Assembly (NCBI GenBank): GCA_017822615.1
Contig: GCA_017822615.1_4530.1
Direction: 5' to 3' (one strand)
Source: a phage
DNA: 64,000 nucleotides
Shown here: piece by piece, positions 197-62,810 of the stretch
Numbering within the stretch: position 1 is the first letter of the stretch
How the letters are laid out: every line of letters begins with the position of its first letter
The notes under the pieces: model-generated
Database searches by the model: none
Told to the model about the DNA's origin: nothing
What the model saw: the letters and a program-made list of their open reading frames with translations, nothing else
Made by a program: the position numbers and the translations under genes

Positions 197-219
197 GTGA
201 AGTATGGGACAAATAATTC

Positions 220-248
220 TTGACAATCGTAACGGAATCAATTATAGT
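220..248 (+). promoter_or_regulatory. sigma70-like promoter TTGACA-N17-TATAGT
   Basis: TTGACA at 220-225, 17-nt spacer, TATAGT at 243-248; followed by a 7-bp leader hairpin at 271-289. Confidence 0.5.
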
Positions 249-385
249 GTCTGCGATTTCCATAGGGTAGTGCTGCCTTACTCAAGGCAGTTCTCTTCAC
301 AACCTAAACACAACGTTTTCGTTTTTAACGGAGTGCCAACAAAAGGTAAAGAGGGCTTTTAGCCCTTAAAAACCTGGGCTTTAAA

Positions 386-1147: not shown

Positions 1148-1425
1148 TGATTAACACTTTTGATTTTGAATACACCACTCGTAACGGGAAAGCCTTGGTC
1201 GTGGAGGTGGATTACTATTATGAAGAACCTAATCCACTTTCTCGTGAAAGCGATTGGGATTACCACGGAGGGCTTTTAATTGACGGTATTCGTTTTTATG
1301 AAGGATCTACAGAAGTTTTTGAAAAAGATTTAAATGTAACTGTAGCAGAAATTGCTTTCCAATTTAGAAAGCACATGGAAGAACTAGAAGCAGAATATAT
1401 GATGGAGACTAACGAACCATTTTAA
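1147..1425 (+). CDS. hypothetical protein
   Basis: 92-aa ORF; ATG overlaps the upstream stop (TAATG), suggesting translational coupling. Confidence 0.55.
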   Translation: MINTFDFEYTTRNGKALVVEVDYYYEEPNPLSRESDWDYHGGLLIDGIRFYEGSTEVFEKDLNVTVAEIAFQFRKHMEELEAEYMMETNEPF

Positions 1426-1437
1426 CAGGAGAACAAA

Positions 1438-3216: not shown

Positions 3217-3234
3217 GGGCTTCGGCCCTTTTAT
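3216..3234 (+). terminator. rho-independent terminator
   Basis: agggc-ttcg-gccct hairpin followed by TTTT directly after the primase-helicase stop. Confidence 0.6.
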
Positions 3235-3246
3235 TAAAAATACCTG

Positions 3247-3275
3247 TTGACAACTTTGCGGAAGGGACTTATACT
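3247..3275 (+). promoter_or_regulatory. sigma70-like promoter TTGACA-N17-TATACT
   Basis: Consensus -35 at 3247-3252, 17-nt spacer, TATACT at 3270-3275; upstream of the 3309 gene. Confidence 0.55.
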
Positions 3276-3308
3276 TGTCTCATCAACCAAACAAGAGGAG
3301 AAGTAAAA

Positions 3309-3740
3309 ATGCGTATGACAATCGATCTGAATGCAAAAGTTAAAGCTGCTGGTGCTCTGGGTGCTGGTGTTATTAAACACAAACAAGCGTTGGCATTTGC
3401 CATCCCACACATGATTGTTGAGGATCATCCTGAAGAGTTTGCTGTAAAAGTTGTTGAGAACAATGTCTCTGTTATTGAACATATCCCAACTGGACGTTCT
3501 TACCGTGTTGTTTCTTCTAAAGGTTTCCGTTTCGATGTAAGCCCTTCTTTCACAAAAGGTGCTGGTCGTAGTAAAGTGGGTATTCTTTCTTACAAATATT
3601 ATATCGATAAAGTTGCAGATGGTGTTGCATTCTGTCGTGTAAGTGAAGGTAAAGTAGATATCATCTTTAAAAATACCAAAAACATGGTTATTTCTGACGA
3701 TGGTAAAGTTGACCTCACTATTGAGTTCGCTAACAACTAA
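3309..3740 (+). CDS. hypothetical early protein
   Basis: 143-aa ORF with strong RBS (GAGGAG), sitting between a terminator and its own promoter. Confidence 0.6.
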   Translation: MRMTIDLNAKVKAAGALGAGVIKHKQALAFAIPHMIVEDHPEEFAVKVVENNVSVIEHIPTGRSYRVVSSKGFRFDVSPSFTKGAGRSKVGILSYKYYIDKVADGVAFCRVSEGKVDIIFKNTKNMVISDDGKVDLTIEFANN

Positions 3741-3749
3741 GGAGGACTA

Positions 3750-4544
3750 TTGAGCAAGTTGAACACACTTGATCAATATTACACTAACCCCGCTTATGCG
3801 GGGTTCTTATGTGATAAGATCAAAGAAATTTTTGGAGAGGAAGCTAACTACGTAGAACCATCTGCGGGAGAAGGAGCTTTCTCTTCTTGTTTTAAAAACA
3901 TAACTTCTTTTGATATTGACCCTAAGTTTGAAGATTGTATTGAGGCAGATTTTTTAGCTCAATCTGTTGAGTCTGTTGGTAGTGTAACTGCTTTTGTCGG
4001 TAATCCTCCGTTTGGAAAAAATGCTAGTCTTGCCATTAAGTTCTTTAACCATTGTGCTGAAATGTTGGATAACGAAGGTGGTATTTGTTTTATCTTGCCT
4101 CGCACATTTCAAAAAATCTTTTTTGCACACAAACTAAATCCCCACATGCATCTTCTTTACGAAGAAGAATGTCCAAAAGGATCTTTTATTCTTCATGGAG
4201 AACCTTGGGATGTTCCTTGTGTATTCCAGATATGGATTAAACGCAACGAGAAGCGTTCTCCCGTTGTTTTAGGAGAGAATCGACTATTCGTATTAGGTAA
4301 CAGTAAAGACTACGATATAGCCGTTAGGAGAGCGGGAGCAAGTGCAGGTAAAGTGTTATCAGAAGAAGATTCTTTATCTGAAGCATCTACCTATTTTTTA
4401 AAAGCCTTGACTTCTGATCTTAAAACGCGTATCATTGAGGCTTACCCGTTACTTAAAGCTGAAGCTAGTAAAACTGCGGGAGTAAGAAGTTTAAGTTTAA
4501 AAGAACTTCAGTGGGTTCTGGAGAACATTAGAAAGGAGGAATAG
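3750..4544 (+). CDS. DNA N6-adenine methyltransferase (gamma class), orphan
   Basis: TTG start after AAGGAGG; AdoMet motif VEPSAGEGAF followed by catalytic FVGNPPFG (NPPF); no restriction endonuclease partner seen. Confidence 0.7.
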   Translation: MSKLNTLDQYYTNPAYAGFLCDKIKEIFGEEANYVEPSAGEGAFSSCFKNITSFDIDPKFEDCIEADFLAQSVESVGSVTAFVGNPPFGKNASLAIKFFNHCAEMLDNEGGICFILPRTFQKIFFAHKLNPHMHLLYEEECPKGSFILHGEPWDVPCVFQIWIKRNEKRSPVVLGENRLFVLGNSKDYDIAVRRAGASAGKVLSEEDSLSEASTYFLKALTSDLKTRIIEAYPLLKAEASKTAGVRSLSLKELQWVLENIRKEE

Positions 4545-7141
4545 TGAGTAAGTTTACATGGGATATTGAAGCAAACGGATTGTTGAATAATGACACTATT
4601 GATTATTTAGCTAGTCCTTATCGTCTCAAAGACACATTTCAAATGCACTGTATTGTCTTAGAGAACCATGAAACAGGAGAAATAGTAGCTTTCCACGATG
4701 GCCCTAAATACATCTTTGATGGGCGTCCTTATGAAGAGTCAGATGGTAAATACACATATGTTCTTAAAGAGTATGTGGCGCAAGATTACACGCATTTTCA
4801 ACTAAAAGATTTCCCAGACTTTATTAATCATGAAGGTTATTTTAAAGACAAGCCTGAATATCTGGTTGAAATGGCTGTGGCTCACAACGGTATCAACTAC
4901 GACTGGTTGGCTACAAAACTGTTTTATGGATTAGATTACAGTGTTAAATATAATACGTGGGGCAAAAATAAGGTAAAACTTATTGACTCCTTGATTTTGA
5001 GTAAAGTGTTAAACCCAGATCGAAAGATTGAGGGCAAATCAGGACATAGCTTGGCAGCACTTTCTCGAAAAGCAGGTGGTGATGTAAAAATAGATTTCCG
5101 TAAAGAGATTCCAGAAGAAGATCGATTTAAGACTTTTGCTGCGGATATGCTTTATTACTGTATCTATGACAACAAAGCCAATACTAGCGTATATAACTAC
5201 CTTATGGAAGAATGGGGTGATTATGATAAATGGGAAGGTCCATTTGAACTTGAACAACGTGTAGCAGACATTATCACACGCCAAGAACACCGTGGGTTTG
5301 CTTTTAACATGAAGCAAGCAGAAGAGAACCTTGCTTTTTTGGATGCAGAAATGGAGCGTCTTCGTTTACTCGTTGAGCCTATTTTGCCACCTAAACCAGC
5401 AACAAAAGGCTATCTTAAGGCTTTTATTCCACCTAAGTTGCAAATTAAAAAGAACTTAGAGCCAACTAACCATATGATCAATTTTGCTAAGAAACATGAT
5501 GGTCATTTGGAAGAGAGGGATGGCGATTGGTGGTTAGTTATGTTGGGGAAAGAGTGGAAACTGCCAGTTGCAGCAGATGAACCTCTATGTGATCCTAACA
5601 TCCCTGCAACATTGAACGATACAACCCATATTAAAAACTGGCTTGTAGGATTAGGTTGGGTACCGTCTGAATATAAAGATAAAGACTTAACTCTTAAATC
5701 TGGCACCAAGATTAAAAAGAGCGAGGAAGAACTTCAGAAAGGTATTCGAGCTTACGTTGAGCAAACTCTATCTTCTAATTTTTGTCAGGATCGTTGTGAT
5801 CATCTGGAGTGCACACCGGAAACCTTGGAAAGGAAGATTCAAGAGCGTATAGCAAAAGGTAAAGGTCGCGGTCTTAAAGTATTGACTAACCCATGTTTTA
5901 CCAAAGGTCAGGAAAAAGAAATCTGTCCTAACCTGCAAGCTTTGGGTGAGAAATTTCCTTATGCTACTCAGATTGTAGAATACTTAACGTATAAGCATCG
6001 TAGGAACTCTATTTTAGGTGGCGGTGCTGATTGGGAAGAAGATGAAGAAGATCAAGAATACGATAAAGGTTTCTTAGCCGCAGTAAGGGCGGATGGGCGT
6101 ATTCCTACACCAGCCGCTACATGTGATGCTGCAACCTCTCGTATGAAGCATAGGTCTGTAGCCAATATCCCTCGTGTCACATCTTTGTTTGGATGGGAGA
6201 TGCGTAACTTGTTTGGTGTAGAAGTTCCTAAATACTTCCAGATCGGTTATGACTTCGACTCTTTGGAAGCAAAGATTGAGTCGCATTATTGTTGGCGCTA
6301 CGAACCGGAGCCTCATGAATACTGTAACGCTCTCTTGTTAGAGAAGCCTAACGATGTTCATACCATGATGGCAAAACGTATTACAGATACTATTGGGCGT
6401 AAGTTTGAACGTAGTCCGGCGAAATCTGTTAAATACGGGATCACTTATGGTGCACAAGCAGACAAGGTTGCTAAAACAATTGGTAGCGATAAATACACAG
6501 GGCAACTGGTGTTCGATGCTTTCTGGGAAGCTGCATTCCCACTGGCGCGTCTTAAAGAACGTTTAAACGATTTCTGGGTTAAGACTGGTAAACAGTATGT
6601 TTTGGGTATTGACGGTCGTAAGGTTCCTACTCGTTCTGCTCACGCGATTCTTAACTCTCTGTTCCAAAGTGGTGGGGTTATCTGTGCTAAACGTGCAATG
6701 GTTATTTATGACGACATGATCGAAGAAGAAGGGCTAAGTGTTGACTTCTTTAAAGATGACTGGAAGAATAAAGACTTCGTGCAACAAATGATTGCATATC
6801 ACGATGAAGCCCAGCTTGAAGTTTCTCGTAACCTTGTAGAATTCAAATGGTTTTCACCTGAATCATTAGGTTGGAAGAAAGTAGACGATCCTGAAGAACA
6901 AAAGAAAATTGATAAAGAATGCCTTGCTAAAGTTGAAGAATGGAAGCATAATAAGGAAAAAGAGACAGGGCAAATTTGGGCTAACATTCATGAATCTCCC
7001 AAAGGTGGATGGTTTACAGCCTATAGTCGGGCAGGTGAACTTGCTGCTTTAGCTGTTACTAAGGCTGGAGAATTTTACAATCTTAATGTTCAGCTTACTG
7101 CCGGATATGATGTGGGTAACTCCTGGGCGTCCTGTCACTAG
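4544..7141 (+). CDS. DNA polymerase, family A, with 3'-5' exonuclease domain
   Basis: GTG start; Exo I motif DIEANGL; Pol A motif A DFDSLEAKIESHY, motif B KSVKYGITYG, motif C AYHDEAQLE; 865 aa. Confidence 0.9.
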   Translation: MSKFTWDIEANGLLNNDTIDYLASPYRLKDTFQMHCIVLENHETGEIVAFHDGPKYIFDGRPYEESDGKYTYVLKEYVAQDYTHFQLKDFPDFINHEGYFKDKPEYLVEMAVAHNGINYDWLATKLFYGLDYSVKYNTWGKNKVKLIDSLILSKVLNPDRKIEGKSGHSLAALSRKAGGDVKIDFRKEIPEEDRFKTFAADMLYYCIYDNKANTSVYNYLMEEWGDYDKWEGPFELEQRVADIITRQEHRGFAFNMKQAEENLAFLDAEMERLRLLVEPILPPKPATKGYLKAFIPPKLQIKKNLEPTNHMINFAKKHDGHLEERDGDWWLVMLGKEWKLPVAADEPLCDPNIPATLNDTTHIKNWLVGLGWVPSEYKDKDLTLKSGTKIKKSEEELQKGIRAYVEQTLSSNFCQDRCDHLECTPETLERKIQERIAKGKGRGLKVLTNPCFTKGQEKEICPNLQALGEKFPYATQIVEYLTYKHRRNSILGGGADWEEDEEDQEYDKGFLAAVRADGRIPTPAATCDAATSRMKHRSVANIPRVTSLFGWEMRNLFGVEVPKYFQIGYDFDSLEAKIESHYCWRYEPEPHEYCNALLLEKPNDVHTMMAKRITDTIGRKFERSPAKSVKYGITYGAQADKVAKTIGSDKYTGQLVFDAFWEAAFPLARLKERLNDFWVKTGKQYVLGIDGRKVPTRSAHAILNSLFQSGGVICAKRAMVIYDDMIEEEGLSVDFFKDDWKNKDFVQQMIAYHDEAQLEVSRNLVEFKWFSPESLGWKKVDDPEEQKKIDKECLAKVEEWKHNKEKETGQIWANIHESPKGGWFTAYSRAGELAALAVTKAGEFYNLNVQLTAGYDVGNSWASCH

Positions 7142-7158
7142 TTAACTCATTGTTTTAT

Positions 7159-7179
7159 AAGGGGCTTCTGCCCCTTTAT
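7159..7179 (+). terminator. rho-independent terminator
   Basis: ggggc-ttct-gcccc hairpin followed by TTTAT after the polymerase stop. Confidence 0.55.
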
Positions 7180-7189
7180 AGGAGGAGAT

Positions 7190-7381
7190 ATGCATTACGA
7201 TTTAGATTGTCTTGGTATGCCTTACCTACCAGATGAATTTGAAGGTGAAGAAGAACGTGAATGGGACGATGGGGATATCCGTTGTTGGTCTTGTGGTAAA
7301 GATATGTCCTATGAACAACATATGCACAATGATGGTTTCTGCATACATTGTTATAATGAAATTGATCTGGAGGAAGATTAA
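7190..7381 (+). CDS. small acidic Cys-containing protein (zinc-ribbon-like)
   Basis: 63 aa; RBS AGGAGGAG; CWSCGK...CIHCY. Confidence 0.6.
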   Translation: MHYDLDCLGMPYLPDEFEGEEEREWDDGDIRCWSCGKDMSYEQHMHNDGFCIHCYNEIDLEED

Positions 7382-7548
7382 TGGGAAATGGTATCATGAT
7401 TTGCTATAAAATTGTGCATATTGTCGGAGACGAAGTTATCACTCGGTATTTTATGATAGAGTCTCAAACCGATGAGGTTTACAATGACTGGCTTGAAAAA
7501 GGTGGATACGATTTTGTATCTAAAGAAACTTTCCGTTTAGAAGTATAA
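7381..7548 (+). CDS. hypothetical small protein (55 aa), not in ORF track
   Basis: ATG overlaps the upstream stop (ATGA); open to TAA at 7546-7548. Confidence 0.4.
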   Translation: MGNGIMICYKIVHIVGDEVITRYFMIESQTDEVYNDWLEKGGYDFVSKETFRLEV

Positions 7549-7558
7549 GGAGAAAACA

Positions 7559-7777
7559 ATGCGTAAATTAGTGAGCTTTAATGTTTCAATTCTTGTTGAT
7601 GAACAAAATGAAGATGTTATTAAAGGTCTTGCAAATAAGATTGCAGGCGGAATGACGGAAGCTGAAGTGTGGGAAGAATGTGCTCGACTTTATGAGGAAG
7701 GTGTTATTGAGGTCTTGGGGGATGAGATTAATATGGACGATGTTGTAAAAGTAACTGTGGAGCGTATCCATGACTAA
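7559..7777 (+). CDS. hypothetical protein
   Basis: 72-aa ORF with RBS AAGGAG. Confidence 0.55.
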   Translation: MRKLVSFNVSILVDEQNEDVIKGLANKIAGGMTEAEVWEECARLYEEGVIEVLGDEINMDDVVKVTVERIHD

Positions 7778-8363
7778 ATCAAAACAAATCAATATTGCCA
7801 AAGAAATTCTTACCGTATTAAAGATTGCTGATCCTAATTCTGTCTTGGCTGGCGGCGCTGTTCGTGATTGGCGTATTCTTGATATTGCTGGACGTGATCT
7901 GGATTTTTACACGTCTCTTCCTGCACATCGATCAGAAGAGCAAATACAAGAATTGATTGCATCTGCTTTGATGGGAACTAATGTTCGTAAATTAGGAAAC
8001 AAAGAAGCTTCGGATAACTACGAGGGTGTTACTGGTCTTAAACACGTTTTTGAGTTTGAACGTGATGGTCAGCTTTGCAACCTTATGATTATGGAACCAA
8101 GCGTAATGACAACCTTTCTAAATGAGTTTGATCTGTCCATCTGCCAGGCTGCATTTGATGGGAAGGATTGTTATTACTCTAAAGATTTTGAAACAACTTT
8201 GGAAACAGGGATCTGCTTCTTGCACAAAGATGTTAGAGAAGATGCCAAACACGTTATTAAAATTGCTACACGTTTCCCATATCTTCGTTTTGTGAAAGAG
8301 GTTAAGGTTCCACGTCCACCTCAAGTAGATACCAGATTGGAAGAAGATGATATTCCTTGGTAA
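7770..8363 (+). CDS. nucleotidyltransferase, CCA-adding enzyme / poly(A) polymerase head-domain-like
   Basis: LAGGAVRDWRILDIAGRDLDFY matches the class II tRNA nucleotidyltransferase signature (GGAVRD...DxD); C-terminus EEDDIPW. Confidence 0.6.
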   Translation: MTKSKQINIAKEILTVLKIADPNSVLAGGAVRDWRILDIAGRDLDFYTSLPAHRSEEQIQELIASALMGTNVRKLGNKEASDNYEGVTGLKHVFEFERDGQLCNLMIMEPSVMTTFLNEFDLSICQAAFDGKDCYYSKDFETTLETGICFLHKDVREDAKHVIKIATRFPYLRFVKEVKVPRPPQVDTRLEEDDIPW

Positions 8364-8370
8364 TTAAAGC

Positions 8371-8400
8371 TTGACAATATTAAACATTTTATGATAGGAT
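8371..8400 (+). promoter_or_regulatory. promoter TTGACA-N18-TAGGAT with TG extended -10
   Basis: TTGACA at 8371-8376; aTGaTAGGAT at 8391-8400, same -10 region as tRNA-cluster promoter P3. Confidence 0.45.
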
Positions 8401-8408
8401 AGCATTCA

Positions 8409-8801
8409 ATGACTGAACGTTCTAAGATAGCTGTTGAAACTGTTTATGGAAACTACACCAGTTTGACACTAGTTGAGAAAAATGTTGTAGGTCTTGACAA
8501 CTCTTTTTATTTTCAAATTTTGGTTATTCAAGGTGGAAACAAGAAGCTAACTGCTCGTGTCGAAACATCTGAAATAATTGAAACCACTGTTACAAACAAA
8601 GAATTCATTTCACTGCAAGATACAATCCGAAACGTTATAGACGAAGAAGGCAAAGCTGCCACAATTAAACTCGGAGGTTTCCCAGTGCAAATAGTTCATT
8701 TTCCTAATGGTGAAATTGGAGTTGGAATAGGTAAAGGTAAATACCTGTTAGAGCAAGATGATATGGAAAGACTCCGCTCTTTCTGTGCAAAATTAATGTA
8801 A
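8409..8801 (+). CDS. hypothetical protein
   Basis: 130-aa ORF downstream of a promoter. Confidence 0.55.
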   Translation: MTERSKIAVETVYGNYTSLTLVEKNVVGLDNSFYFQILVIQGGNKKLTARVETSEIIETTVTNKEFISLQDTIRNVIDEEGKAATIKLGGFPVQIVHFPNGEIGVGIGKGKYLLEQDDMERLRSFCAKLM

Positions 8802-8817
8802 TGTAGAGGAGATAATA

Positions 8818-9705
8818 ATGTCCGTAATTAATACTGAAACTGATCGTAAAGGCAAAACCGTAACTTATGCAACTGGTATCGTAGACTACGTTAAACTGGA
8901 TAAATTCGCTGAACCTAAAACTTTTCATTGGGAAGGAAAAACGATTGTTTCAACTCACCGAGCCTCTCTTGTTCTGAAAGAGAAAGGTGCTAAACCAGAT
9001 GAGAAAGGTGTTTGGATTTCTCTTGGTGACATTGAACTGAAAGAAGGTTATGAAAACCTGCAAGTCAAAGAAGGTGATAATTGGATCACTATTGAAAAAG
9101 GTGTAGAAGTAAGTATTGATATTGATCGCGTTGATAATAAAGGCGGTAAAACTTACTACAATACTAAAAAATCTCGTATTACAGTATTGTCTACCGATGG
9201 TGTTCAGAAGTCTAACAAATCTTCTGGCAATAAAGGTTCCAACGATGCTGCTCCTAAGCAGTCCTATAAAAAACGTGATACTGTAGGTCTGGAAACTGGT
9301 CACGCAGTAAATGGTGCACTGGAACTGATTCGTAATGGTGTTAAAGGTGATGCTTTCGATATCGCTGGGGTTGTTCAATCTGCAACTGTCACGCTGAAAT
9401 CGGAAATTGCTGAATCTCGTGGCGTTGATATTAATGATTATGATCTTGGGGCATCTGTTGGTCACGCTATTCTCAATGCTTGTAAAGACCATACCATTAA
9501 GACTGTATCTGTAGAAGATCTGATTGACTCTGCTCGTAAAGTTCTAGCTCTGTCTGATAAAGTTGCTGCTGCCATTCGTGGTTCCGCAGAACAACCTAAG
9601 AAAGAAGAGAAGAAAGAAGTTAAGAAACCTGAACCACAACCAGAACCAACTCCAAGCAATCAAGAAGAACCTCCAATGGACTTCGATGATGATATTCCGT
9701 TCTGA
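8818..9705 (+). CDS. ssb: single-stranded DNA-binding protein
   Basis: 295 aa; Gly/Lys-rich linker and acidic C-terminal tail PPMDFDDDIPF, identical in its last residues to the E. coli SSB tail. Confidence 0.8.
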   Translation: MSVINTETDRKGKTVTYATGIVDYVKLDKFAEPKTFHWEGKTIVSTHRASLVLKEKGAKPDEKGVWISLGDIELKEGYENLQVKEGDNWITIEKGVEVSIDIDRVDNKGGKTYYNTKKSRITVLSTDGVQKSNKSSGNKGSNDAAPKQSYKKRDTVGLETGHAVNGALELIRNGVKGDAFDIAGVVQSATVTLKSEIAESRGVDINDYDLGASVGHAILNACKDHTIKTVSVEDLIDSARKVLALSDKVAAAIRGSAEQPKKEEKKEVKKPEPQPEPTPSNQEEPPMDFDDDIPF

Positions 9706-48952: not shown

Positions 48953-49031
48953 TGGAGGCGGGAATCGGATTCGAACCGATGATCTCCAGCATATGAAACT
49001 GGCGAGGACGACCAGACTCCTCTATCCCGCT
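48953..49031 (-). tRNA. tRNA-Met(CAT): tRNA, anticodon CAT (Met or lysidine-Ile), CCA encoded
   Basis: Manual cloverleaf: T-arm atcgg/attcgaa/ccgat, anticodon loop TTCATAT, 6/7 acceptor pairs. Confidence 0.6.
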
Positions 49032-49037
49032 ATTATG

Positions 49038-49107
49038 TATCCCGTGCTGGATTCGAACCAGCATCACAATAAGCTGTGGAACTCTTATCCTGTAAGTCTA
49101 ACGGGAA
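49038..49107 (-). tRNA. tRNA-like gene, anticodon unresolved
   Basis: Canonical T-arm gctgg/attcgaa/ccagc and 6/7 acceptor stem, but no regular anticodon arm could be folded. Confidence 0.35.
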
Positions 49108-49112
49108 ACTGG

Positions 49113-49183
49113 TTGTTTCGACAAGAATCGAACTTGTATCTCACGATTATCAGTCGTGGGTTCTACCATTGAACTACGAAACA
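49113..49183 (-). tRNA. tRNA-Ile(GAT): tRNA-Ile (GAT)
   Basis: Perfect 7-bp acceptor stem, D-stem GTTC/GAAC, anticodon loop CTGATAA, T-loop TTCGATT. Confidence 0.75.
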
Positions 49184-49192
49184 TTTAATTGG

Positions 49193-49266
49193 TCGGAATT
49201 GCAGGATTCGAACCTGCGACAATACGCTCCCAAAGCGTACACTCTACCAAACTGAGCTAAATTCCG
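49193..49266 (-). tRNA. tRNA-Pro(TGG): tRNA-Pro (TGG)
   Basis: Perfect acceptor stem, anticodon stem TACGC/GCGTA, loop TTTGGGA. Confidence 0.75.
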
Positions 49267-49363
49267 TCATAACATTCTAAAGGTACACCGCAAAAGAAAG
49301 TGTTCGGCGGCTCCTCGTTTTTTAACTTCACACTTGAGGTAGTGACTCACCTTTGTTGTATGG

Positions 49364-49436
49364 CTGGTCTGTCTGGATTTGAACCAAACCTACGACAGTC
49401 AAAGTGTCGTGTGCTACCTGACTACACTACAAACCA
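49364..49436 (-). tRNA. tRNA-Gln(TTG): tRNA-Gln (TTG)
   Basis: Anticodon stem CGACA/TGTCG, loop CTTTGAC, T-loop TTCAAAT. Confidence 0.7.
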
Positions 49437-49534
49437 ATAAATCATTTAATGAAGGGCAACCAGAAGAAGTGTGAGAGAAGGAGAAAACCATGAGTAAAAG
49501 AGAAAGTTTTCTGGCAACCCTTTATTAAATAATT

Positions 49535-49611
49535 TGGAGCGTTATATCGGATTCGAACCGATGCCACCGACTTGGAAGGACGGGATGCTGAACCGCTAAC
49601 ACTAATAACGC
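49535..49611 (-). tRNA. tRNA-Gly(TCC): tRNA-Gly (TCC), CCA encoded
   Basis: Perfect acceptor stem, anticodon loop CTTCCAA with one U-U mismatch in the stem. Confidence 0.65.
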
Positions 49612-49619
49612 TTTGTATA

Positions 49620-49654
49620 TATTTACTATACTACATTTTACTATTGGTTGTCAA
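49620..49654 (-). promoter_or_regulatory. tRNA promoter P1 (ctaTTGACAA, TG-extended -10)
   Basis: ttgtcaatag on plus strand at 49647-49656; TATAGT-like -10; reads into tRNA-Gly. Confidence 0.5.
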
Positions 49655-49930
49655 TAGTTTTATTGAGTGGGACAGTGACGAGTATCCCATTGGGTGACTA
49701 GCCCTACGTTCGGTAAGCTAACTTAAAATAATACAAAACAAAAGTCAAATATTATTCTTCGTTGCTGTCGATGGGAGAGCCGCTTCTTCTTTTGCCCCAT
49801 CCAACCCTACTCCGGTCAAGTTTCAGGTGACTCTTTTTGTGATCAACACAATACTAAGAACACTGTCTTTCGAGCAGACCTTGTGCACAGGATACGACGA
49901 TCAATCACAGTGCTCTTAATGTTGTGTTGG

Positions 49931-50002
49931 TGCTCCCACACTGAATCGAACAGAGATCCACGGATTACAAAACCGTTGTAATAGCCATTATACTATAGGA
50001 GC
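49931..50002 (-). tRNA. tRNA-Thr(TGT): tRNA-Thr (TGT)
   Basis: Acceptor stem with one G-U pair, anticodon loop TTTGTAA, T-loop TTCGATT. Confidence 0.6.
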
Positions 50003-50008
50003 AATGCT

Positions 50009-50086
50009 GGGACTCGGCAGGATTCGATACCTGCAATTCCAGAAGCCTATTGGCGACTGGGGGGTTTACCTTAACTCTACAAGTCC
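50009..50086 (-). tRNA. tRNA-like gene, non-canonical
   Basis: Acceptor stem (6 bp plus G-U) and T-stem GCAGG/CCTGC with an 8-nt T-loop; anticodon arm could not be placed. Confidence 0.3.
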
Positions 50087-50093
50087 ATAATTC

Positions 50094-50179
50094 TGGCGAT
50101 GAGTATAGGATTCGAACCTATATTGTTCTTTCGAACACGGATTAACAGTCCGCCGCTTAAACCATTCAGCCAACTCATC
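50094..50179 (-). tRNA. tRNA-Asn(GTT): type II (long variable arm) tRNA with Asn anticodon GTT, CCA encoded
   Basis: Perfect 7-bp acceptor, 3-bp D-stem, anticodon arm GCGGA-CTGTTAA-TCCGT, 15-nt variable arm GTTCGAAAGAACAAT, discriminator G73. Confidence 0.55.
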
Positions 50180-50185
50180 TTAATT

Positions 50186-50273
50186 TGGTGGTGAGTGATG
50201 GAGTCGAACCACCCGAATCGCAATGATAACAGATTTACAGTCTGCCCCGCTACCCCTACGGAATTAACTCACC
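50186..50273 (-). tRNA. tRNA-Tyr(GTA): tRNA-Tyr (GTA), type II, CCA encoded
   Basis: Perfect acceptor stem, anticodon arm GCAGA-CTGTAAA-TCTGT, long variable arm. Confidence 0.65.
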
Positions 50274-50403
50274 TAAATACTAATATTTAAATTCTTTTTA
50301 AAATAGCCAGTGTTCACACCACTAACTATGAGGTATCGGTAAAGTGGTTACCGCCACTTGCCGAAGATTTACTCTGCTAAAGTAAGCTACATTAAAAAGA
50401 ACT

Positions 50404-50489
50404 TGGCGGTAGATGTAGGACTCGAACCTACACGCCGTTTCCGACTACAGTTTAGCAAACTGTCGTGGCTACCATTTCACCAATCTACC
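50404..50489 (-). tRNA. tRNA-Ser(GCT): tRNA-Ser (GCT), type II, CCA encoded
   Basis: Perfect acceptor stem, anticodon arm ACAGT-TTGCTAA-ACTGT, 15-nt variable arm, G73. Confidence 0.7.
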
Positions 50490-50494
50490 TAATC

Positions 50495-50585
50495 TGGCGG
50501 AAGGAGGGAGAGTCGAACTCCCAAGGCTCTTTCAAGCTCGGCGGTTTTCAAGACCGTTTTCGTCGCCACATCGATTTGCCCTTCC
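50495..50585 (-). tRNA. tRNA-Ser(TGA): tRNA-Ser (TGA), type II, CCA encoded
   Basis: Anticodon loop CTTGAAA, long variable arm, T-loop TTCGACT, G73. Confidence 0.6.
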
Positions 50586-50593
50586 ATACTTAT

Positions 50594-50623
50594 AATCTAA
50601 CATAAAATAATGTTTGTTGTCAA
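50594..50623 (-). promoter_or_regulatory. tRNA promoter P2 (ctaTTGACAA, aTGtTAGATT)
   Basis: ttgtcaatag at 50616-50625; reads into tRNA-Ser(TGA). Confidence 0.5.
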
Positions 50624-50819
50624 TAGTTTTTTAAAACATTTTACCATGAATGGTGACTCCACCAACCCCCGTTCTCCACGAACGGTGCTCTTCGAGCATT
50701 TATGTCTTCTAATATAACCGTGGCCTTTGTTTATAATGTCTGACATACTTGCCTCATTCTCTGCCACCATGATCAGTAGTGGGTTCAAATCACTTGAGCT
50801 AATTCATGTTAAAATGTTC

Positions 50820-50894
50820 TGGTGTCTTTACAAGGAATCGAACCTTGACTAAGAGTTTAGAAGACTCCTGTGCTATCCATTACACCATAAAGAC
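50820..50894 (-). tRNA. tRNA-Arg(TCT): tRNA-Arg (TCT), CCA encoded
   Basis: Perfect acceptor stem, D-stem GTGT/GCAC, anticodon loop CTTCTAA. Confidence 0.7.
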
Positions 50895-50896
50895 TT

Positions 50897-50971
50897 TGGT
50901 GGCCCTGGCTGGTTTCGATCCAGCTACCTATCGGTTATGAGCCGACAGCTCTCCCATTGAGCTACAGGGCC
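50897..50971 (-). tRNA. tRNA-Met(CAT): tRNA-Met (CAT), possibly initiator-like, CCA encoded
   Basis: Perfect acceptor stem, anticodon loop CTCATAA with three G/C pairs closing the stem; unusual T-loop ATCGAAA. Confidence 0.65.
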
Positions 50972-51180
50972 ATAAATGTGGTAACAGAGACGCTGACGAT
51001 TGTAGAGAACCGCTACATTCTCTAAGACCAAGCCCAACTTTCAGCGTAAAAGTTCTTGAGCCGAGACTATTCCTTTTCCTCTTTGGTAGCTAACCTCTGA
51101 AGAAGTAGTCTCTAACACTACCGCAGTGCAAGCCCCTCTTAACAAAAGTCAACGACCCTGTTACCACACTTGATGAACGT

Positions 51181-51210
51181 ATCCTAACATATGAAGGATA
51201 CGTTTGTCAA
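51181..51210 (-). promoter_or_regulatory. tRNA promoter P3 (ctaTTGACAA, aTGtTAGGAT)
   Basis: ttgtcaatag at 51203-51212; reads toward the tRNA-Met/Arg end of the cluster. Confidence 0.5.
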
Positions 51211-51217
51211 TAGTTAT

Positions 51218-51466
51218 TTAAGCATATTCTGCTACTTCTTCACTATCTTTCTTTTCCAGAAGAGCAACAACCAAAGCTTCTGCGTTAAAAGTGTTAATTT
51301 CAAGATCCATTTCTCGCATCAGAGCCAAGAAATCAATAACTTTAACATCTTTAGTTATTACAATAGAAGTTGTACCATTGTTTTCAGATGTGTATTTTTC
51401 TGGATGGAAAAGAAAAACTGCATTGCCGTTACCATCTTCAAACACGTGTTTTTCTAATAGAGACAT
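51218..51466 (-). CDS. hypothetical protein (83 aa, start refined)
   Basis: Internal ATG at 51466 preceded by AGGAGG is a better start than the upstream ATG used in the track. Confidence 0.5.
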   Translation of the reverse strand: MSLLEKHVFEDGNGNAVFLFHPEKYTSENNGTTSIVITKDVKVIDFLALMREMDLEINTFNAEALVVALLEKKDSEEVAEYA

Positions 51467-51474
51467 TGTTCCTC

Positions 51475-51726
51475 CTAATCTGTTAGTTGTTCGTCCTCTA
51501 CCAAGTTTGACACGAGAACGTCTGTTATACATTGATGCTGATAAACCCTTTCGGGACTATCATCAAAAGCCAAACCTGTGCAAATAGAACAGAGGTCTGA
51601 TTCCTTGATGACTCCATTTTTATCACGTCTGGAGTGGTTTGTCAAATGCCTATTACAAGCACGGCACCTAAAATAAAAGCTATTTTGCATATATCCTTCG
51701 AACCCCAAATGGGGAGTGATCGGCAT
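51475..51726 (-). CDS. hypothetical Cys-rich protein
   Basis: 83 aa with CxxC...CxxC; poor SD spacing; overlaps a plus-strand track ORF. Confidence 0.35.
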   Translation of the reverse strand: MPITPHLGFEGYMQNSFYFRCRACNRHLTNHSRRDKNGVIKESDLCSICTGLAFDDSPERVYQHQCITDVLVSNLVEDEQLTD

Positions 51727-51763
51727 CTCCTCACTTCTAGTTTAGCACGAAGGATATCTTAAG

Positions 51764-51949
51764 TCAACTAGGAATAATTTTATCCTTTTTGGTTTCATAA
51801 CCAGTCCAATCTAAATCCTCCCAGCCTTCATCATCGTCTAACACATTGTCATCATCATAAGATGCAATGTTATAAATAGAACGTGGATTACAAGACATAC
51901 AATCTTTAATAGGCACATGATGCCATTTGCACGGATTCTCACTAATCAT
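51764..51949 (-). CDS. small acidic Cys-containing protein
   Basis: 61 aa; RBS GGAGG; Asp/Glu-rich C-terminal half. Confidence 0.5.
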   Translation of the reverse strand: MISENPCKWHHVPIKDCMSCNPRSIYNIASYDDDNVLDDDEGWEDLDWTGYETKKDKIIPS

Positions 51950-51981
51950 TGCACACCTCCATTCTTGTTAAGATGTTCCGT

Positions 51982-52010
51982 ACTGTACTTCATACTAATC
52001 TATAGATCAA
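51982..52010 (-). promoter_or_regulatory. candidate minus-strand promoter TTGATC-N17-TACAGT
   Basis: Hexamers with 17-nt spacing about 33 nt upstream of the 51949 start, inside the divergent AT-rich region. Confidence 0.3.
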
Positions 52011-52431
52011 GTATTATTTATAATAATTTATTATTTTATTTTTTAATTGATAGAAGTTGATCTGTACGTACCAGTTCTGATACACTGTACCTGTTTGTTA
52101 GATCTAATAATTATTTATTATTAATATTTAATAATTATTAATCTAGTACGGAGTACAGTACTTGAGTACAGAGTACTACATCAACAACCTAAAACCTTAA
52201 CTCGCTGCGCTCGTTAATAGATTTCTAGGGTAGCATACTTCGAACACAAAAGTCAAGAGTTTTATTAAAATTATTTTCTGTGTGCAAAAAACCTTGCTTA
52301 AATAGGTAGCAATAGTATAGCCTATAACATAAGCTTCATAAGAGGCTCGTAGAGCAAGTTCACTTACTAGGTAAGGTGATTTATCATCTTATATATAAAA
52401 AGTGCGTCAGAGACGCGTTTAGGAGGCTAGA

Positions 52432-52755
52432 ATGAGATTTACAAGACAAGAGGTAGTTGTGCTGGACGAAGCAATGACAATGATCGTCTTTTACTACGAG
52501 GATATCTTCTGTGCAGCATATCATTTAAATGATATTCAGATTGAATGGCAGCAGATAGCATTCCTGTTGGACAAGAGTAATCATTTGGATGGCTTTGAGT
52601 ATTTGGAGTGGGATGGTGCAAAGGAAGTTAAAATTGTAGGGTTAAATCACGATCAGATTGTTGACATGCAATGTAAGTTGTGTCATTATCAGTTCTCAAA
52701 CAAAGTCAAACTCGAAAGGCAATTGGAGGTGGTTAAAGATGATAGCACTAATTAG
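52432..52755 (+). CDS. hypothetical early protein
   Basis: 107 aa; RBS AGGAGG; first gene of the plus-strand early block. Confidence 0.55.
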   Translation: MRFTRQEVVVLDEAMTMIVFYYEDIFCAAYHLNDIQIEWQQIAFLLDKSNHLDGFEYLEWDGAKEVKIVGLNHDQIVDMQCKLCHYQFSNKVKLERQLEVVKDDSTN

Positions 52756-52855
52756 TGAGAACCCAATCCTGACAACAATTGTTCTGATTTTTGCCATGTG
52801 TGTGGTTCACGATGTTCTGGTAAGTTATTTTGACAACAAAGGAGGTAAGAAATGA
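52739..52855 (+). CDS. small membrane peptide (38 aa, start refined)
   Basis: Internal ATG after GGAGGTGG; single hydrophobic helix ILTTIVLIFAMCVV. Confidence 0.4.
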   Translation: MIALISENPILTTIVLIFAMCVVHDVLVSYFDNKGGKK

Positions 52856-53046
52856 AAGACGTTATTCAAATGGTATTCCGTGTAACGCTAGATGGTATAC
52901 ACGTTGTTAAAGGCACACAGAACTACACAGAAGCGAAAGAACACTTCTTAGAGTGGATTGATACATTGAAGACACAAGATGTGTCCTACAGCCGTGTTAC
53001 GCTTACTGGCGACCATACCCCAATCATGGAGTACGTAAAGAAATGA
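52852..53046 (+). CDS. hypothetical protein
   Basis: 64 aa; overlapping start/stop with neighbours. Confidence 0.5.
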   Translation: MKDVIQMVFRVTLDGIHVVKGTQNYTEAKEHFLEWIDTLKTQDVSYSRVTLTGDHTPIMEYVKK

Positions 53047-53282
53047 GCAACTATCCAATTACAGGCGTAACCTATTCTTGTGTAGCAAAAGGTGGTTTAT
53101 ATACAGTAGTGGAATTTCCAAAACCCGCCGGAATATCTAAAGTGTTTGATCCTGTGGTTATCTATGAAGATCTTAGAACAGGTCAACGTTACTGGAGATT
53201 TGTGAATGACTTTTTAGATCGTATGGAGGTAGTAAGTGGCGAAAACACCGAAGAAGTTATCAAAGCCAAAGAACGTTACTAA
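53043..53282 (+). CDS. hypothetical protein
   Basis: 79-aa ORF. Confidence 0.5.
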   Translation: MSNYPITGVTYSCVAKGGLYTVVEFPKPAGISKVFDPVVIYEDLRTGQRYWRFVNDFLDRMEVVSGENTEEVIKAKERY

Positions 53283-53589
53283 GAAACCGAAAAACGAGGT
53301 TCTCAAAGTAGCCAAATCAGTTCCTAAGAAAGATAAATTTGATACGGAGGCATTCGTCTTTGACACACCAATCGAGAAGATTGAAGAAGCGTTGCAACGT
53401 CTTGAGGAGCAGGAGGCAGATCCAATGGCTGAACCACTCACGGCAGACCAAATTTATTGGTGGGGAATATGGACTTTGCAACTACCAGAAGCAAAACGAA
53501 GAGGAATGACTTCAGTTCCTACTTGTGCAAAAGAAGCGGCTGTGTTAGGTTTGTATGAGAAATCTAAAAAGAGGAGCAAAAAGAAATGA
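53236..53589 (+). CDS. hypothetical Lys-rich protein
   Basis: 117 aa; GTG start 7 nt after GGAGG; overlaps the upstream gene by 47 nt. Confidence 0.45.
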   Translation: MAKTPKKLSKPKNVTKKPKNEVLKVAKSVPKKDKFDTEAFVFDTPIEKIEEALQRLEEQEADPMAEPLTADQIYWWGIWTLQLPEAKRRGMTSVPTCAKEAAVLGLYEKSKKRSKKK

Positions 53590-54249: not shown

Positions 54250-54716
54250 GAATTAAAGTAACTAAAGCTTACGATGATAACCCGAAGTTTATCTCTTTGA
54301 ATAAGAGTTATGGTGTCGAAAACGGCGATGAGTTCGAGGTTATCGATCTTTTTGAGGACCACGGTTATATTGTCAAAGCCCCAATCACAGAGCAGGCTAT
54401 TATCATCTTACGCACAGAGGCTGTTGAGGTAGGTTCTGATGAGCCTCAATATGACAGCCCATACATGACAGAGTGGATCGTAGCTGTGGATGTTGGAGGT
54501 ATGGTTTCTGTACTGAAGGCTCCTAATCTCCATCCTAGTTTTACAGAGAACGGTAAGACAGCTTTGGATTATGGGTTGCCAGAAGATGTTGAGAATACAC
54601 CGCCAGGTATGTACCGTTGGATTTGCTCTTTCCATGAAGAGAAGGATTGGGAATCAGGGCTTGTTGATGATTGGCATTTTGAAGTGGAAAGTTCTTTTTT
54701 AATCATGCCAGCTTAA
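54246..54716 (+). CDS. hypothetical protein
   Basis: 156 aa; RBS AAGGAGG. Confidence 0.55.
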   Translation: MRIKVTKAYDDNPKFISLNKSYGVENGDEFEVIDLFEDHGYIVKAPITEQAIIILRTEAVEVGSDEPQYDSPYMTEWIVAVDVGGMVSVLKAPNLHPSFTENGKTALDYGLPEDVENTPPGMYRWICSFHEEKDWESGLVDDWHFEVESSFLIMPA

Positions 54717-54726
54717 AGGAGGTTAT

Positions 54727-55071
54727 ATGAAAGTTTGGATAGATGATATGCGGAACCCAGCCGACTATGGACAGGAGGATGCAATTTGGTTTAAAACGTC
54801 ACAAGAAGCTATGGCCTTTCTCAACGATCCTGCTAAACTGTATCGAAGAGTAACCGAGTGGTCTTTTGACAATGATTTAGGTATGGAGTCAGACCAAGAT
54901 GGGTATGATGTTTTCCTGTACCTGGAAGAACTTCTGGCGTTTGGTAAACCTTGCTTTGGTTCACCCACCATTTTCGTGCATACTTCTAATCCCGCCGCTG
55001 GGGATAAATTCATGCTTGCAAAAGAATCCATGCTGCGTTATGGTATTAAAATGATTCGTGTGCACTACTAA
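54727..55071 (+). CDS. hypothetical protein
   Basis: 114 aa; RBS AAGGAGG. Confidence 0.55.
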   Translation: MKVWIDDMRNPADYGQEDAIWFKTSQEAMAFLNDPAKLYRRVTEWSFDNDLGMESDQDGYDVFLYLEELLAFGKPCFGSPTIFVHTSNPAAGDKFMLAKESMLRYGIKMIRVHY

Positions 55072-61691: not shown

Positions 61692-62810
61692 ATTAGCGGT
61701 TATATTTTAATTAAACCTGAAGATCTTCATTTATATGTCAACGAAGAAACAATAGCTGCAATTGATTATGATCAGATCGCTTTCCAAGCAGCGTCTGCAT
61801 TAGAGAAAAGAACAATCATTGCGAAGCACATCCCTTCAGGTGCTCAAAAGGAATTTAAAAATAAGACAGAGTTTTGGGGTAAAAGCAAGACTAAAATTGG
61901 AGGTTGGCTAGGAGATACAAATGCAGAAAGAGCCTCCAAAAACAAACGTCCCTTCACAAAGGAAGAGTTCGAAATCATTGATAAGCAATATCCGCCAGAA
62001 GATATCGGACACACCTTCCAAGCAGCTAAAACAAAAGTCTTAGGTATTCTAAAACATCTACGTTTAGAAAAATATTGCGGAGTTATTGGCGTAGGAAAAA
62101 CTTTCAGACACGCCTTCAAAATGCCTGTAGAATATAAATCTGAACGATTAGATATCAAACCACTCCAGCTTTCAGAAACCAAAGATTATCTTGTGGAGTT
62201 CCACAATGGTGATGTTGTTACTGTAATAGAAGCTGATGATGAGTTAGAGAAGTATGGTTTCCAAGGTTATAAAGATTATAAAAGGACGGGTAAATTTTCT
62301 TATATCGTTGTATCTATAGATAAAGATAGTTTACATACTCCTAGTATCCTTTTTAATTTCTACAAAGAGGATGGAGTATTTAAAAATCCAGATATAATTC
62401 TTATTGACGAGTCTATTGGCGACATATGGATCGTAGATAAAGGTAAAAAGAAAGAAGTTAAAGGTTGGGGCAGTTACTGGTTAGCATATCAGATGCTAAT
62501 GGGAGATAAAACAGATAGTATCCGACCTTATCAAGATTTTGATATTAAGTTCGGAGATATTACTTGTTTTAATCTTCTTTCAGCTTGTAAAACTCAAGCA
62601 GAACTTTTCCAAACAGTTAAAGATACTTACTACTCATGGTTCCCAGATGGTGTTAATTTTACTTCTTGGGATGGAGAAGAAGTCCATATGACAACAGATG
62701 AATGGATAGAAACAATTTTCCAGTTGGTATACATGAAACGCTGGGATAATGACGATACAACATTTGAGAGTATGCTTCAGTCATACATCTCGCAACAGGA
62801 GGCAGAGTGA
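61692..62810 (+). CDS. 5'-3' exonuclease / flap endonuclease (T7 gp6-like), non-canonical start
   Basis: Frame open from 61680; AIDYDQIAFQAASA resembles T7 gp6 MDGDWLVFQAMSA, VVSIDKD resembles IISCDKD, GDKTDSI helix; no ATG/GTG/TTG before 62121, so ATT at 61692 after AGGGGGA is proposed. Confidence 0.5.
   Translation: MSGYILIKPEDLHLYVNEETIAAIDYDQIAFQAASALEKRTIIAKHIPSGAQKEFKNKTEFWGKSKTKIGGWLGDTNAERASKNKRPFTKEEFEIIDKQYPPEDIGHTFQAAKTKVLGILKHLRLEKYCGVIGVGKTFRHAFKMPVEYKSERLDIKPLQLSETKDYLVEFHNGDVVTVIEADDELEKYGFQGYKDYKRTGKFSYIVVSIDKDSLHTPSILFNFYKEDGVFKNPDIILIDESIGDIWIVDKGKKKEVKGWGSYWLAYQMLMGDKTDSIRPYQDFDIKFGDITCFNLLSACKTQAELFQTVKDTYYSWFPDGVNFTSWDGEEVHMTTDEWIETIFQLVYMKRWDNDDTTFESMLQSYISQQEAE

Follow-up and report, generated by a model that had tools for sequence, protein, structure and literature searches.

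A predicted multi-promoter control region with a GTAC cluster and a promoter-linked hairpin at a divergent junction of Phapecoctavirus

In coliphage 186, the promoters pR and pL form a face-to-face promoter switch, and at the primary origin of phage T7, as at oriF and oriG of phage T4, one or more promoters are directed into a short, very A/T-rich unwinding tract. The related phage rV5 is reported to carry bidirectional sigma-70 promoters at a strand switch, and its changes of skew track the direction of transcription (PMC3606486; Kropinski et al.). In T4-type phages, promoter-early stem-loop (PeSL) cassettes have been described (PMC2839356, PMC4122927). The cores GCGNAGC and GCGNNAGC are the "mini-hairpin DNA" of the review by Kimoto and Hirao, with sites in the complementary-strand origins of G4 and St-1, in ssiA of RSF1010 and in the early promoters of N4 (PMC13037366). 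Here we compare with these systems a locus found in a 64,000-nucleotide stretch of phage DNA (contig GCA_017822615.1_4530.1 of GenBank assembly GCA_017822615.1; hereafter the window). By sequence comparison, bases 51500-53000 of the window are 99% identical to about 65 Phapecoctavirus genomes, and the source is assigned on this sequence basis to Phapecoctavirus, as a phAPEC8-like Escherichia coli myovirus of about 150 kb in the subfamily Stephanstirmvirinae. The element in question is the 482-bp non-coding interval at 51950-52431. We propose, with a probability of about 0.68, that it is an enlarged multi-promoter bidirectional control region of Phapecoctavirus, read by the sigma-70 RNA polymerase of the host.

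The facing promoters of the interval resemble pR/pL of phage 186: they look at each other across ~100-125 bp, would head operons of different timing and are conserved in the subfamily. Unlike 186, this is a lytic phage in which no repressor gene was recognised, and promoter interference is here something that we infer. In common with the divergent regions of the rV5 type, the interval is intergenic at a strand switch, has outward-pointing host-type promoters and an A/T-rich upstream tract, and coincides with a turn of the skew where the direction changes. It departs from them in holding four promoters, among them the facing pair, together with a 182-bp dyad and a conserved hairpin. Homology to the bidirectional promoter region of rV5 genes 10/11 was considered and rejected, the two regions not being homologous.

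Four predicted promoters at a divergent junction

A position-weight scan of both strands placed four sites, named here P_L2, P_R1, P_L1 and P_R3, first to fourth among all sites (Table 1). The scan used approximate textbook sigma-70 frequencies entered by hand, and all promoters described below are predictions. The hexamers of the four sites stand at sigma-70-type spacing on both strands, and the outward-pointing ones are directed toward the flanking genes. P_L2 is the best site of the region, exceeds the 95th percentile of the maxima of shuffled sequences and has an A/T-rich tract upstream of it (52257-52285). P_L1 precedes a Shine-Dalgarno (SD) sequence, GGAGG (complement of 51956-51960), and an open reading frame (ORF) of 61 amino acids (aa). 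The spacer of P_R1 contains the central palindrome GTACGTAC (52064-52071).

Conservation was assessed on the orthologous intergenic regions of phages phiWec188/179, Citrobacter phage Tr1, phi92 and Klebsiella phage FKP3. The 107-aa protein encoded next to the interval is 33-94% identical across these phages, and both conservation and covariation rest on four or five independent lineages. We found the same promoters at the same relative positions in all of them, within surrounding sequence that can barely be aligned, and the position-weight scan ranked these elements as the best sites of each phage. The counterpart of P_L1 is among the top three sites of phiWec188, Tr1, phi92 and FKP3 (TTGACy-17/18-TAGAGT, TACACT or TAGTAT). 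The counterparts of P_R1 read TTGATC-18-TGtTACTAT in phiWec188, TTGTAA-17-TAGTAT in Tr1, TTGTTA-17-TAGTAT in phi92 and TTGATT-17-TATAGT in FKP3, and those of P_R3 read TTGACT-17-TACCAT in Tr1 (12.3 bits) and TTGACA-17-TATCAT in FKP3 (14.3 bits). When P_L2 was aligned across six diverged phages, the spacer was free to vary and the invariant positions were TTGAC, TG, TACCCTA and a 13-mer downstream. In every comparison phage, an A/T tract of 45-55 bp lies directly upstream of P_L1, with P_R1 abutting it. P_R1 and P_L2 face each other, and this layout is kept across the subfamily. The divergent control region proposed in the initial annotation is supported by these results, with the top-scoring sigma-70-type sites pointing in both directions and their positions kept in five diverged members of the subfamily.

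The gene context was examined on both sides. The interval, flanked by ORF 51764..51949 (-) and ORF 52432..52755 (+), is the divergent junction between a tRNA-and-virion block and an early/middle block. On the minus strand to its left, two small ORFs are followed by ten tRNA genes (48953-50971), beyond which the leftward block extends down to 9768 with genes for the terminase, portal, major capsid protein, tail sheath, tail proteins and tailspikes. To its right lie many small genes, then RNA-repair and ligase genes. A plus-strand block at 204-9705 encodes a T7-gp4-like primase/helicase and a family-A DNA polymerase. Most related records place no gene in the interval, and a few automatically annotated ones place one or two hypothetical proteins there.

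In the arrangement that we propose, P_L1 (leftward) and P_R1 (rightward) would stand back to back around the 46-bp A/T tract, which would serve as an UP-element or a bendable spacer. P_L2, ~240 bp farther right, would fire through the hairpin motif toward P_R1, with an overlap of ~125 nt between the two transcripts, and P_R3 would act directly before the first rightward gene. Leftward transcription would reach the two small ORFs, the array of ten tRNA genes and the whole virion and packaging module, and rightward transcription would reach the small early genes and then the RNA-repair and ligase genes. In the phAPEC8 clade, an inverted duplication of the P_L1 segment and a short tandem duplication appear to have enlarged the ancestral layout; most GTAC sites, the dyad of 182 bp and the additional A/T palindrome would all stem from these events.

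Several points weigh against a promoter region of this kind. A consensus scan returned seven promoter-like sites, compared with 6.3 expected, and such hexamers are common in A/T-rich DNA; P_L2 alone of the four tops the 95th percentile of the shuffle maxima. P_R1 is the weakest and least consistent claim of the four, and a 2-nt insertion breaks it in the related phage BI-EHEC. For the whole subfamily, no mapped transcription start and no transcriptome paper was found. If sigma-70 promoters drive the virion genes, some mechanism must set their timing, and none was identified. The other divergent switch of the same genome is a plain spacer of 115 bp, compared with 482 bp here, and promoter function alone therefore leaves the size and symmetry of the interval unexplained.

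Table 1. Features of the interval, with positions and strand in the window
Feature	Position	Strand	Description
P_L1	51982..52010	-	-35 TTGATC 52010..52005, 17-nt spacer, -10 TACAGT 51987..51982; predicted start ~51975; 11.0 bits
P_R1	52057..52086	+	-35 TTGATC 52057-52062, 18-nt spacer, extended -10 TGaTACACT 52078-52086; predicted start ~52093; 11.9 bits
P_L2	52227..52256	-	-35 TTGACT 52256..52251, 18-nt spacer, extended -10 TGcTACCCT 52235..52227; predicted start ~52218-52224; 12.7 bits
P_R3	52359..52387	+	TTCACT-17-TATCAT; predicted start ~52394; 8.9 bits; also found by a separate consensus scan
AT tract 1	52011..52056		46 bp, nearly all A/T, separating the -35 boxes of P_L1 and P_R1
AT tract 2	52099..52145		near-perfect A/T palindrome with flanks AGATCT and ATCTAG; specific to the phAPEC8 clade
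Large imperfect dyad (182 bp)	51980..52161		arms 51980-52035 and 52106-52161, 56 nt, 71% complementary
Left GTAC pair GTACTGTAC	51980..51988		shares bases with the -10 of P_L1; outermost part of the large dyad's left arm
Right GTAC array	52146..52176		31 bp with five AGTAC, in two imperfect tandem units of ~20 bp; includes GTACAGTAC
Hairpin element	52196..52218	-	13-mer CGAGCGCAGCGAG at 52213..52201, enclosed by a 5-bp stem TTAAC/GTTAA
Leader of the first rightward gene	52404..52426	+	hairpin GCGTCagaGACGC 52404-52416, SD AGGAGG 52421-52426, ATG at 52432

Regarding the surroundings of these features, the leader hairpin GCGTCagaGACGC scored as terminator-like on the minus strand, and a hairpin is present at the equivalent place in phiWec188 and Tr1. 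Between P_L2 and P_R3, the phiWec phages have an additional 70-aa gene, served by a promoter of its own (TTGTGT-16-TATAGT); window positions 52300-52380 lack an ORF and retain this promoter in degraded form (TTGCTT..TATAGC). A reading of TTGCTTA as a T4 MotA box was rejected, as neither spacing nor conservation fits. Pfam and PHROGs searches with ten flanking proteins returned unknown-function families and one cREC_REC domain, with no regulator or initiator recognised. A search of IMG/VR for relatives of the neighbouring 107-aa protein found none, and relatives were recovered by tblastn against cultured phages. When 52140-52270 was compared by BLAST with all complete E. coli genomes, nothing matched, and the region is therefore not host-derived.

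The first leftward gene (51764-51949, minus strand) encodes a 61-aa protein beginning MISENPCKWHHVPIKDCMSCNPRS, with the Cys/His pattern C7, H10/H11, C17 and C20 and a very acidic C-terminal half. It has a PHROG hit to a family without known function, and from its residue pattern it may be a small zinc-binding early protein. Farther right, the 114-aa protein encoded at 54727-55071 (+) matches Pfam cREC_REC, a cyclic-phosphate processing receiver domain (E 4e-17). Because related records annotate RNA ligase and polynucleotide kinase genes farther along this block, it may be an RNA-repair module.

A/T tracts, a probable inverted duplication and the GTAC cluster

The GC content is 0.313 in 51950-52431 and 0.186 in 51990-52145, compared with 0.394 across the window, and the lowest 150-bp value (~0.18) both of the window and of a complete 144.8-kb relative falls within the interval. 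AT tract 1 is the lowest-GC stretch of the genome and has a same-position counterpart in all five diverged relatives. It is probably a shared UP-element or an easily bent or unwound spacer, a function that we infer from its position. AT tract 2 is almost invariant among ten members of the phAPEC8 clade and forms a DNA hairpin with 18-nt arms that are 89% complementary (z = -3.44; none of 200 dinucleotide shuffles as stable). The arms of the large dyad end exactly in GTACTGTAC and GTACAGTAC, and its centre lies ~3 bp from that of GTACGTAC. Folded as single-stranded DNA, the 192-nt dyad reaches z = -4.55, again with 0/200 shuffles as stable. The cumulative GC skew has its minimum at ~52000, coincident with the change in the direction of transcription, and all four skew turning points of the complete relative genome are such changes.

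These observations confirm much of what the initial annotation had read from the letters: the AT-rich non-coding interval is real and is the GC minimum of the window and of the complete relative, the strand switch lies where it was placed, and the inverted repeats are real, folding beyond 200/200 dinucleotide shuffles. The strings that it quoted are all present, with some coordinates shifted by one: 52146 is the first position of the GTAC run and 52062 that of ctgtacgtaccag.

GTAC starts at positions 51980, 51985, 52064, 52068, 52087, 52146, 52153, 52158, 52166 and 52173. These ten sites in 197 bp (51980-52176) represent 10 of the 70 of the whole window, for which ~206-228 were expected, making GTAC the most depleted of the 256 tetranucleotides (observed/expected ratio, O/E, 0.34). 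In the complete relative DIJ07P2, 141 sites were counted genome-wide and 438 expected (O/E 0.32), with at most four sites per 200 bp in any other cluster. In the right array, GTACAGTAC is an inverted copy of the left pair GTACTGTAC and carries the -10 hexamer TACAGT; the motif GAGTACAGTAC of this array occurs at a single location in the window. Two other explanations of short palindromes in the region were rejected. A cluster of GATC (Dam) sites was considered in view of several AGATCT in relatives, and three GATC per ~100 bp proved unremarkable in the window. The TrpR operator has the consensus GTACT-N8-AGTAC with a CTAG core; here the GTAC half-sites are 2 or 9 nt apart with a single CTAG, a spacing that does not fit.

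The origin of the cluster can be followed by comparison with the sister clades. In phiWec188/179, Tr1, phi92 and FKP3, the P_L2 block begins within ~40 nt after TGTTAGATC, AT tract 2 is absent and the intergenic regions contain no GTAC cluster. In the phAPEC8 clade, ~88 bp are inserted after TGTTAGATC, comprising the second A/T palindrome and five AGTAC. The inserted segment is an inverted match of the P_L1 segment, and the right arm of the large dyad is missing in the sister clades. The most plausible interpretation of the large dyad is that the P_L1 segment was duplicated in inverted orientation. Since the insertion matches that segment in inverted orientation and the right array consists of two tandem units, most GTAC sites would be by-products of the duplication of GTACAGTAC with its -10 TACAGT.

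Natural variants were found within the clade. In BI-EHEC and KKP3954, the -10 of P_L1 is changed from TACAGT to TACAAT, nearer the consensus. In EP57, a 40-bp deletion takes out the SD of the 61-aa gene together with the left GTAC pair and the -10 of P_L1, and a further 20-bp deletion lies at ~52320-52340; the first of these natural deletions shows that neither the left GTAC pair nor the -10 of P_L1 is required. In the nieznany record, the two ends overlap and differ by a 66-bp deletion in one copy (window 52022-52086), so that the phage may also be able to do without the segment that holds P_R1 and a portion of AT tract 1.

The GTAC sites themselves change fastest. Among ten clade members, 14 of 40 GTAC columns were variable, compared with 25 of 442 other columns (Fisher's test, 2.6e-7), and 15 of 18 GTAC changes were C>T or G>A at the outer bases. 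BI-EHEC keeps one of the ten sites of the interval and KKP3954 about three, and in both phages sites of the right array have been eroded to GTAT/ATAC. As BI-EHEC has lost nine of ten, GTAC itself is not essential. Over 40 kb outside the region, the same phage has lost 12 of 27 GTAC sites, almost all by transitions, at an overall divergence of 2.1% (O/E 0.13). O/E is 0.30-0.34 in the phAPEC8 clade and, in 5-kb samples, 0.5-0.65 in the phiWec phages and ~0.8 in Tr1, phi92 and FKP3; the depletion is specific to the phAPEC8 clade. The pattern of erosion suggests ongoing restriction avoidance or hypermutable modified sites, and it speaks against an operator or iteron for which GTAC is indispensable. 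As for a phage GTAC methyltransferase as the cause of the C>T changes, a Schickermooser protein annotated "Dcm" had no Pfam hit. Another 4-base palindrome, CTAG, is absent from each of the phiWec188/181/179 loci (~5.4 kb each; ~11.6 expected) and has an O/E of 0.58 in the phAPEC8 clade, so the two clades avoid different 4-base palindromes.

A predicted promoter-plus-hairpin unit

The motif CGAGCGNAGCGAG, located just downstream of P_L2, is invariant across the six diverged phages except at its N, which is A, C, G or T among otherwise near-identical contigs. In the outer stem of the hairpin element, 90% of the cells are paired and two of five pairs show UA<->CG exchanges, a result matched by 3 of 500 shuffles. 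The hairpin core reads GCGCAGC here, with a GNA loop, and GCGATAGC, with a GNNA loop, in two other copies of the genome. The complete related genome DIJ07P2 contains exactly three occurrences of TTGACT-17/18-TGnTACCCTA, each followed 12-13 nt later by CGAGCG(C or AT)AGCGAG. In reverse-complement coordinates, these units are at 3842 (-), 44717 (+) and 70463 (+), and two of the three loci have no A/T tract. The unit at 44717 is oriented against the surrounding genes, into a 334-bp gap. The hairpin lacks a T-run and lies downstream of the -10. TACCCTA is taken as the predicted -10 of the Stephanstirmvirinae promoter class.

The nearest described concept to this unit is the PeSL cassette: both combine a strong sigma-70-like promoter with A/T-rich DNA upstream and a neighbouring stem-loop, are repeated in the genome and head transcription units. 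The unit differs in being present in three copies per genome, compared with ~50, and in not flanking ORFans in hyperplastic regions. In place of the polyG/polyC terminator of PeSL, it has a stem-loop that follows the -10 and consists of one unvarying 13-mer, with GNA or GNNA as the loop, and its -10 is the unusual invariant TACCCT. With mini-hairpin DNA it shares the core class (both GNA and GNNA), the free middle base and a place beside a predicted start of nucleic-acid synthesis (PMC13037366). Unlike the known sites, it stands in double-stranded DNA, on the non-template strand 12-20 nt downstream of a predicted host-type promoter.

Outside the subfamily, the 13-mer CGAGCGNAGCGAG also occurs in unrelated viral contigs of IMG/VR. 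In one family of viral contigs (one of them 59 kb), terminase and portal genes are preceded by a divergent region that carries a back-to-back pair of 13-mers. As a multi-copy repeat, for example tgtcattcCGAGCGNAGCGAGgaatct, it is found in genomes of Chloroflexota, Acidobacteriota, Bacteroidota, Planctomycetota and Desulfovibrio. TACCCTA plus the 13-mer was tried as a universal composite (41 viral and 115 prokaryotic loci) and rejected: ~90 chance matches were estimated in 596 Gb, and the 13-mer on its own is already a common repeat. Most of the prokaryotic matches can be put down to chance co-occurrence, and the 13-mer alone is kept as widespread. Rfam gave no relevant match at six other loci carrying the hairpin element, where mir-3718 matches merely reflect an inverted repeat, and no covariance-model match in 51000-53500 at E up to 1.

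Alternative readings and significance of the interval

The initial annotation had named a replication origin, binding sites for a phage regulator and a genome terminus as candidates. That the interval is, or also is, an origin is a reasonable idea but seems to us rather unlikely, and this reading and the promoter reading are not mutually exclusive. The AT-rich dyad DNA would be an unwinding element opened by divergent and convergent transcription, and the non-template mini-hairpin below P_L2 would stabilise an R-loop, or load or prime the phage primase-helicase, on the model of the T7 primary origin, T4 oriF/oriG and ColE1. As in the transcription-activated origins of T7 and T4, promoters aim into an A/T tract, here AT tract 2 from both sides, and the phage encodes a T7-like primase-helicase and a family-A polymerase. 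The genome-wide GC minimum and the unique structure also fall in this region, the nieznany assembly breaks inside the tract with its 66-bp length variant, and the core GCGNAGC belongs to the mini-hairpin class of the origin and promoter sites cited above (PMC13037366). The promoter-into-tract geometry is present in this clade: AT tract 2 lies at +10 to +50 of P_R1 and is the only transcribed tract, whereas the only A/T tract of the sister clades is upstream of both promoters. The tract being missing there, a promoter-into-unwinding-element design appears not to be conserved. The skew minimum is accounted for by the strand switch, as are the other turning points and as in rV5, and the promoter-plus-hairpin unit recurs at two loci devoid of an A/T tract. 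Being abundant in many prokaryotic genomes, the 13-mer is not diagnostic of origins. We found no DnaA box or integration host factor (IHF) consensus (one DnaA-like 9-mer has two mismatches), no array of at least three iterons (the two imperfect ~20-bp units at 52145-52184 are ~12/20 identical by eye) and no initiator-like neighbour recognised by Pfam or PHROGs. An equally good candidate lies outside the window, at 62200-62450 of the DIJ07P2 reverse complement, a non-coding region with the second-lowest GC of that genome and four AAACTTTAAAT direct repeats. A paper on the genome mechanics of PsgM04F does not address origins. Of the proposed origin, the AT-rich, unwinding-prone DNA is present, while DnaA/IHF sites, an iteron array and a recognisable initiator gene were not found. 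A bolder version would make TTGACw-17/18-TGnTACCCTA with CGAGCG(N1-2)AGCGAG a new initiation cassette, in which transcription exposes the non-template mini-hairpin, holds an R-loop open and recruits the phage primase-helicase, with the copy in the interval as primary origin and the GTAC array as a clade-specific accessory; we consider this improbable.

It is similarly doubtful, and to be held as unlikely, that the GTAC sites are an array for a clade-specific GTAC-recognising protein (a repressor, initiator or nicking enzyme), the rest of the genome having been purged to avoid off-target action. The cluster is unique in the genome and co-occurs with genome-wide depletion in the same clade, its sites are symmetric around the A/T tracts, and its right array is built of two ~20-bp units. 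Yet the GTAC columns are the most variable of the region, BI-EHEC and KKP3954 retain few of the sites, EP57 does without the left pair, and the losses elsewhere in BI-EHEC resemble restriction avoidance or hypermutability rather than a protected operator; no methyltransferase or nuclease candidate was confirmed, the "Dcm" annotation included. The regulator-binding reading of the GTAC repeats is weakened accordingly, the motif being absent from the sister clades and the fastest-changing part within this one. That the region would be a physical genome end, a terminal-repeat boundary or a packaging start site is extremely improbable. The public nieznany record does begin inside the region, several records have it 3-6 kb from their end, and three (Danish) records annotate a 55-bp "repeat_region" here. 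The overlapping nieznany ends with their 66-bp difference, however, mean that its start is an assembly break, in low-complexity DNA, and the annotated repeat is one arm of the inverted repeat. For Schickermooser, Korf et al. (2019; PMC6563267) placed the ends of the linear genome at pile-ups of read ends and reported a terminal repeat of 328 bp. We found an exact repeat of 329 bp at the two ends of its record; this repeat is not similar to anything in the window, and the region, at 54,492-54,968 of that record, lies ~54 kb away; in DIJ07P2, the homologue of the terminal repeat is ~48 kb from the region. In the sister genus, too, there is a short terminal repeat, and it lies in a different non-coding region (PMC12210895). 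The terminus candidate is refuted through these relatives, whose 329-bp terminal repeat lies ~50 kb away. Several Fur-box-like sequences (GATAATGATTATCATT-like) were seen in the terminal-repeat and adjoining non-coding regions (Schickermooser left end 1-620, the BME3 ends and DIJ07P2 reverse complement 62150-62200), all outside the window.

We favor the view that the interval, although elaborate, is in essence an ordinary promoter hub, unusual in two respects: its GTAC cluster and the promoter-plus-mini-hairpin element. Phages of this genus are frequently put forward as therapeutic agents against E. coli and Klebsiella, but the map of their regulation is empty and the interval is unannotated in most records. 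The analysis offers four concrete predicted promoter positions at the junction of the virion and early blocks, and the finding that the region is not a terminus helps in orienting Phapecoctavirus assemblies. A 13-mer of the mini-hairpin class is linked to promoters three times per genome and is also present in unrelated viral contigs. GTAC, purged genome-wide, clustered here and being erased in some isolates, provides a small natural experiment on restriction avoidance versus regulatory constraint. The facing-promoter layout is conserved across the subfamily and could contribute to the timing of gene expression.

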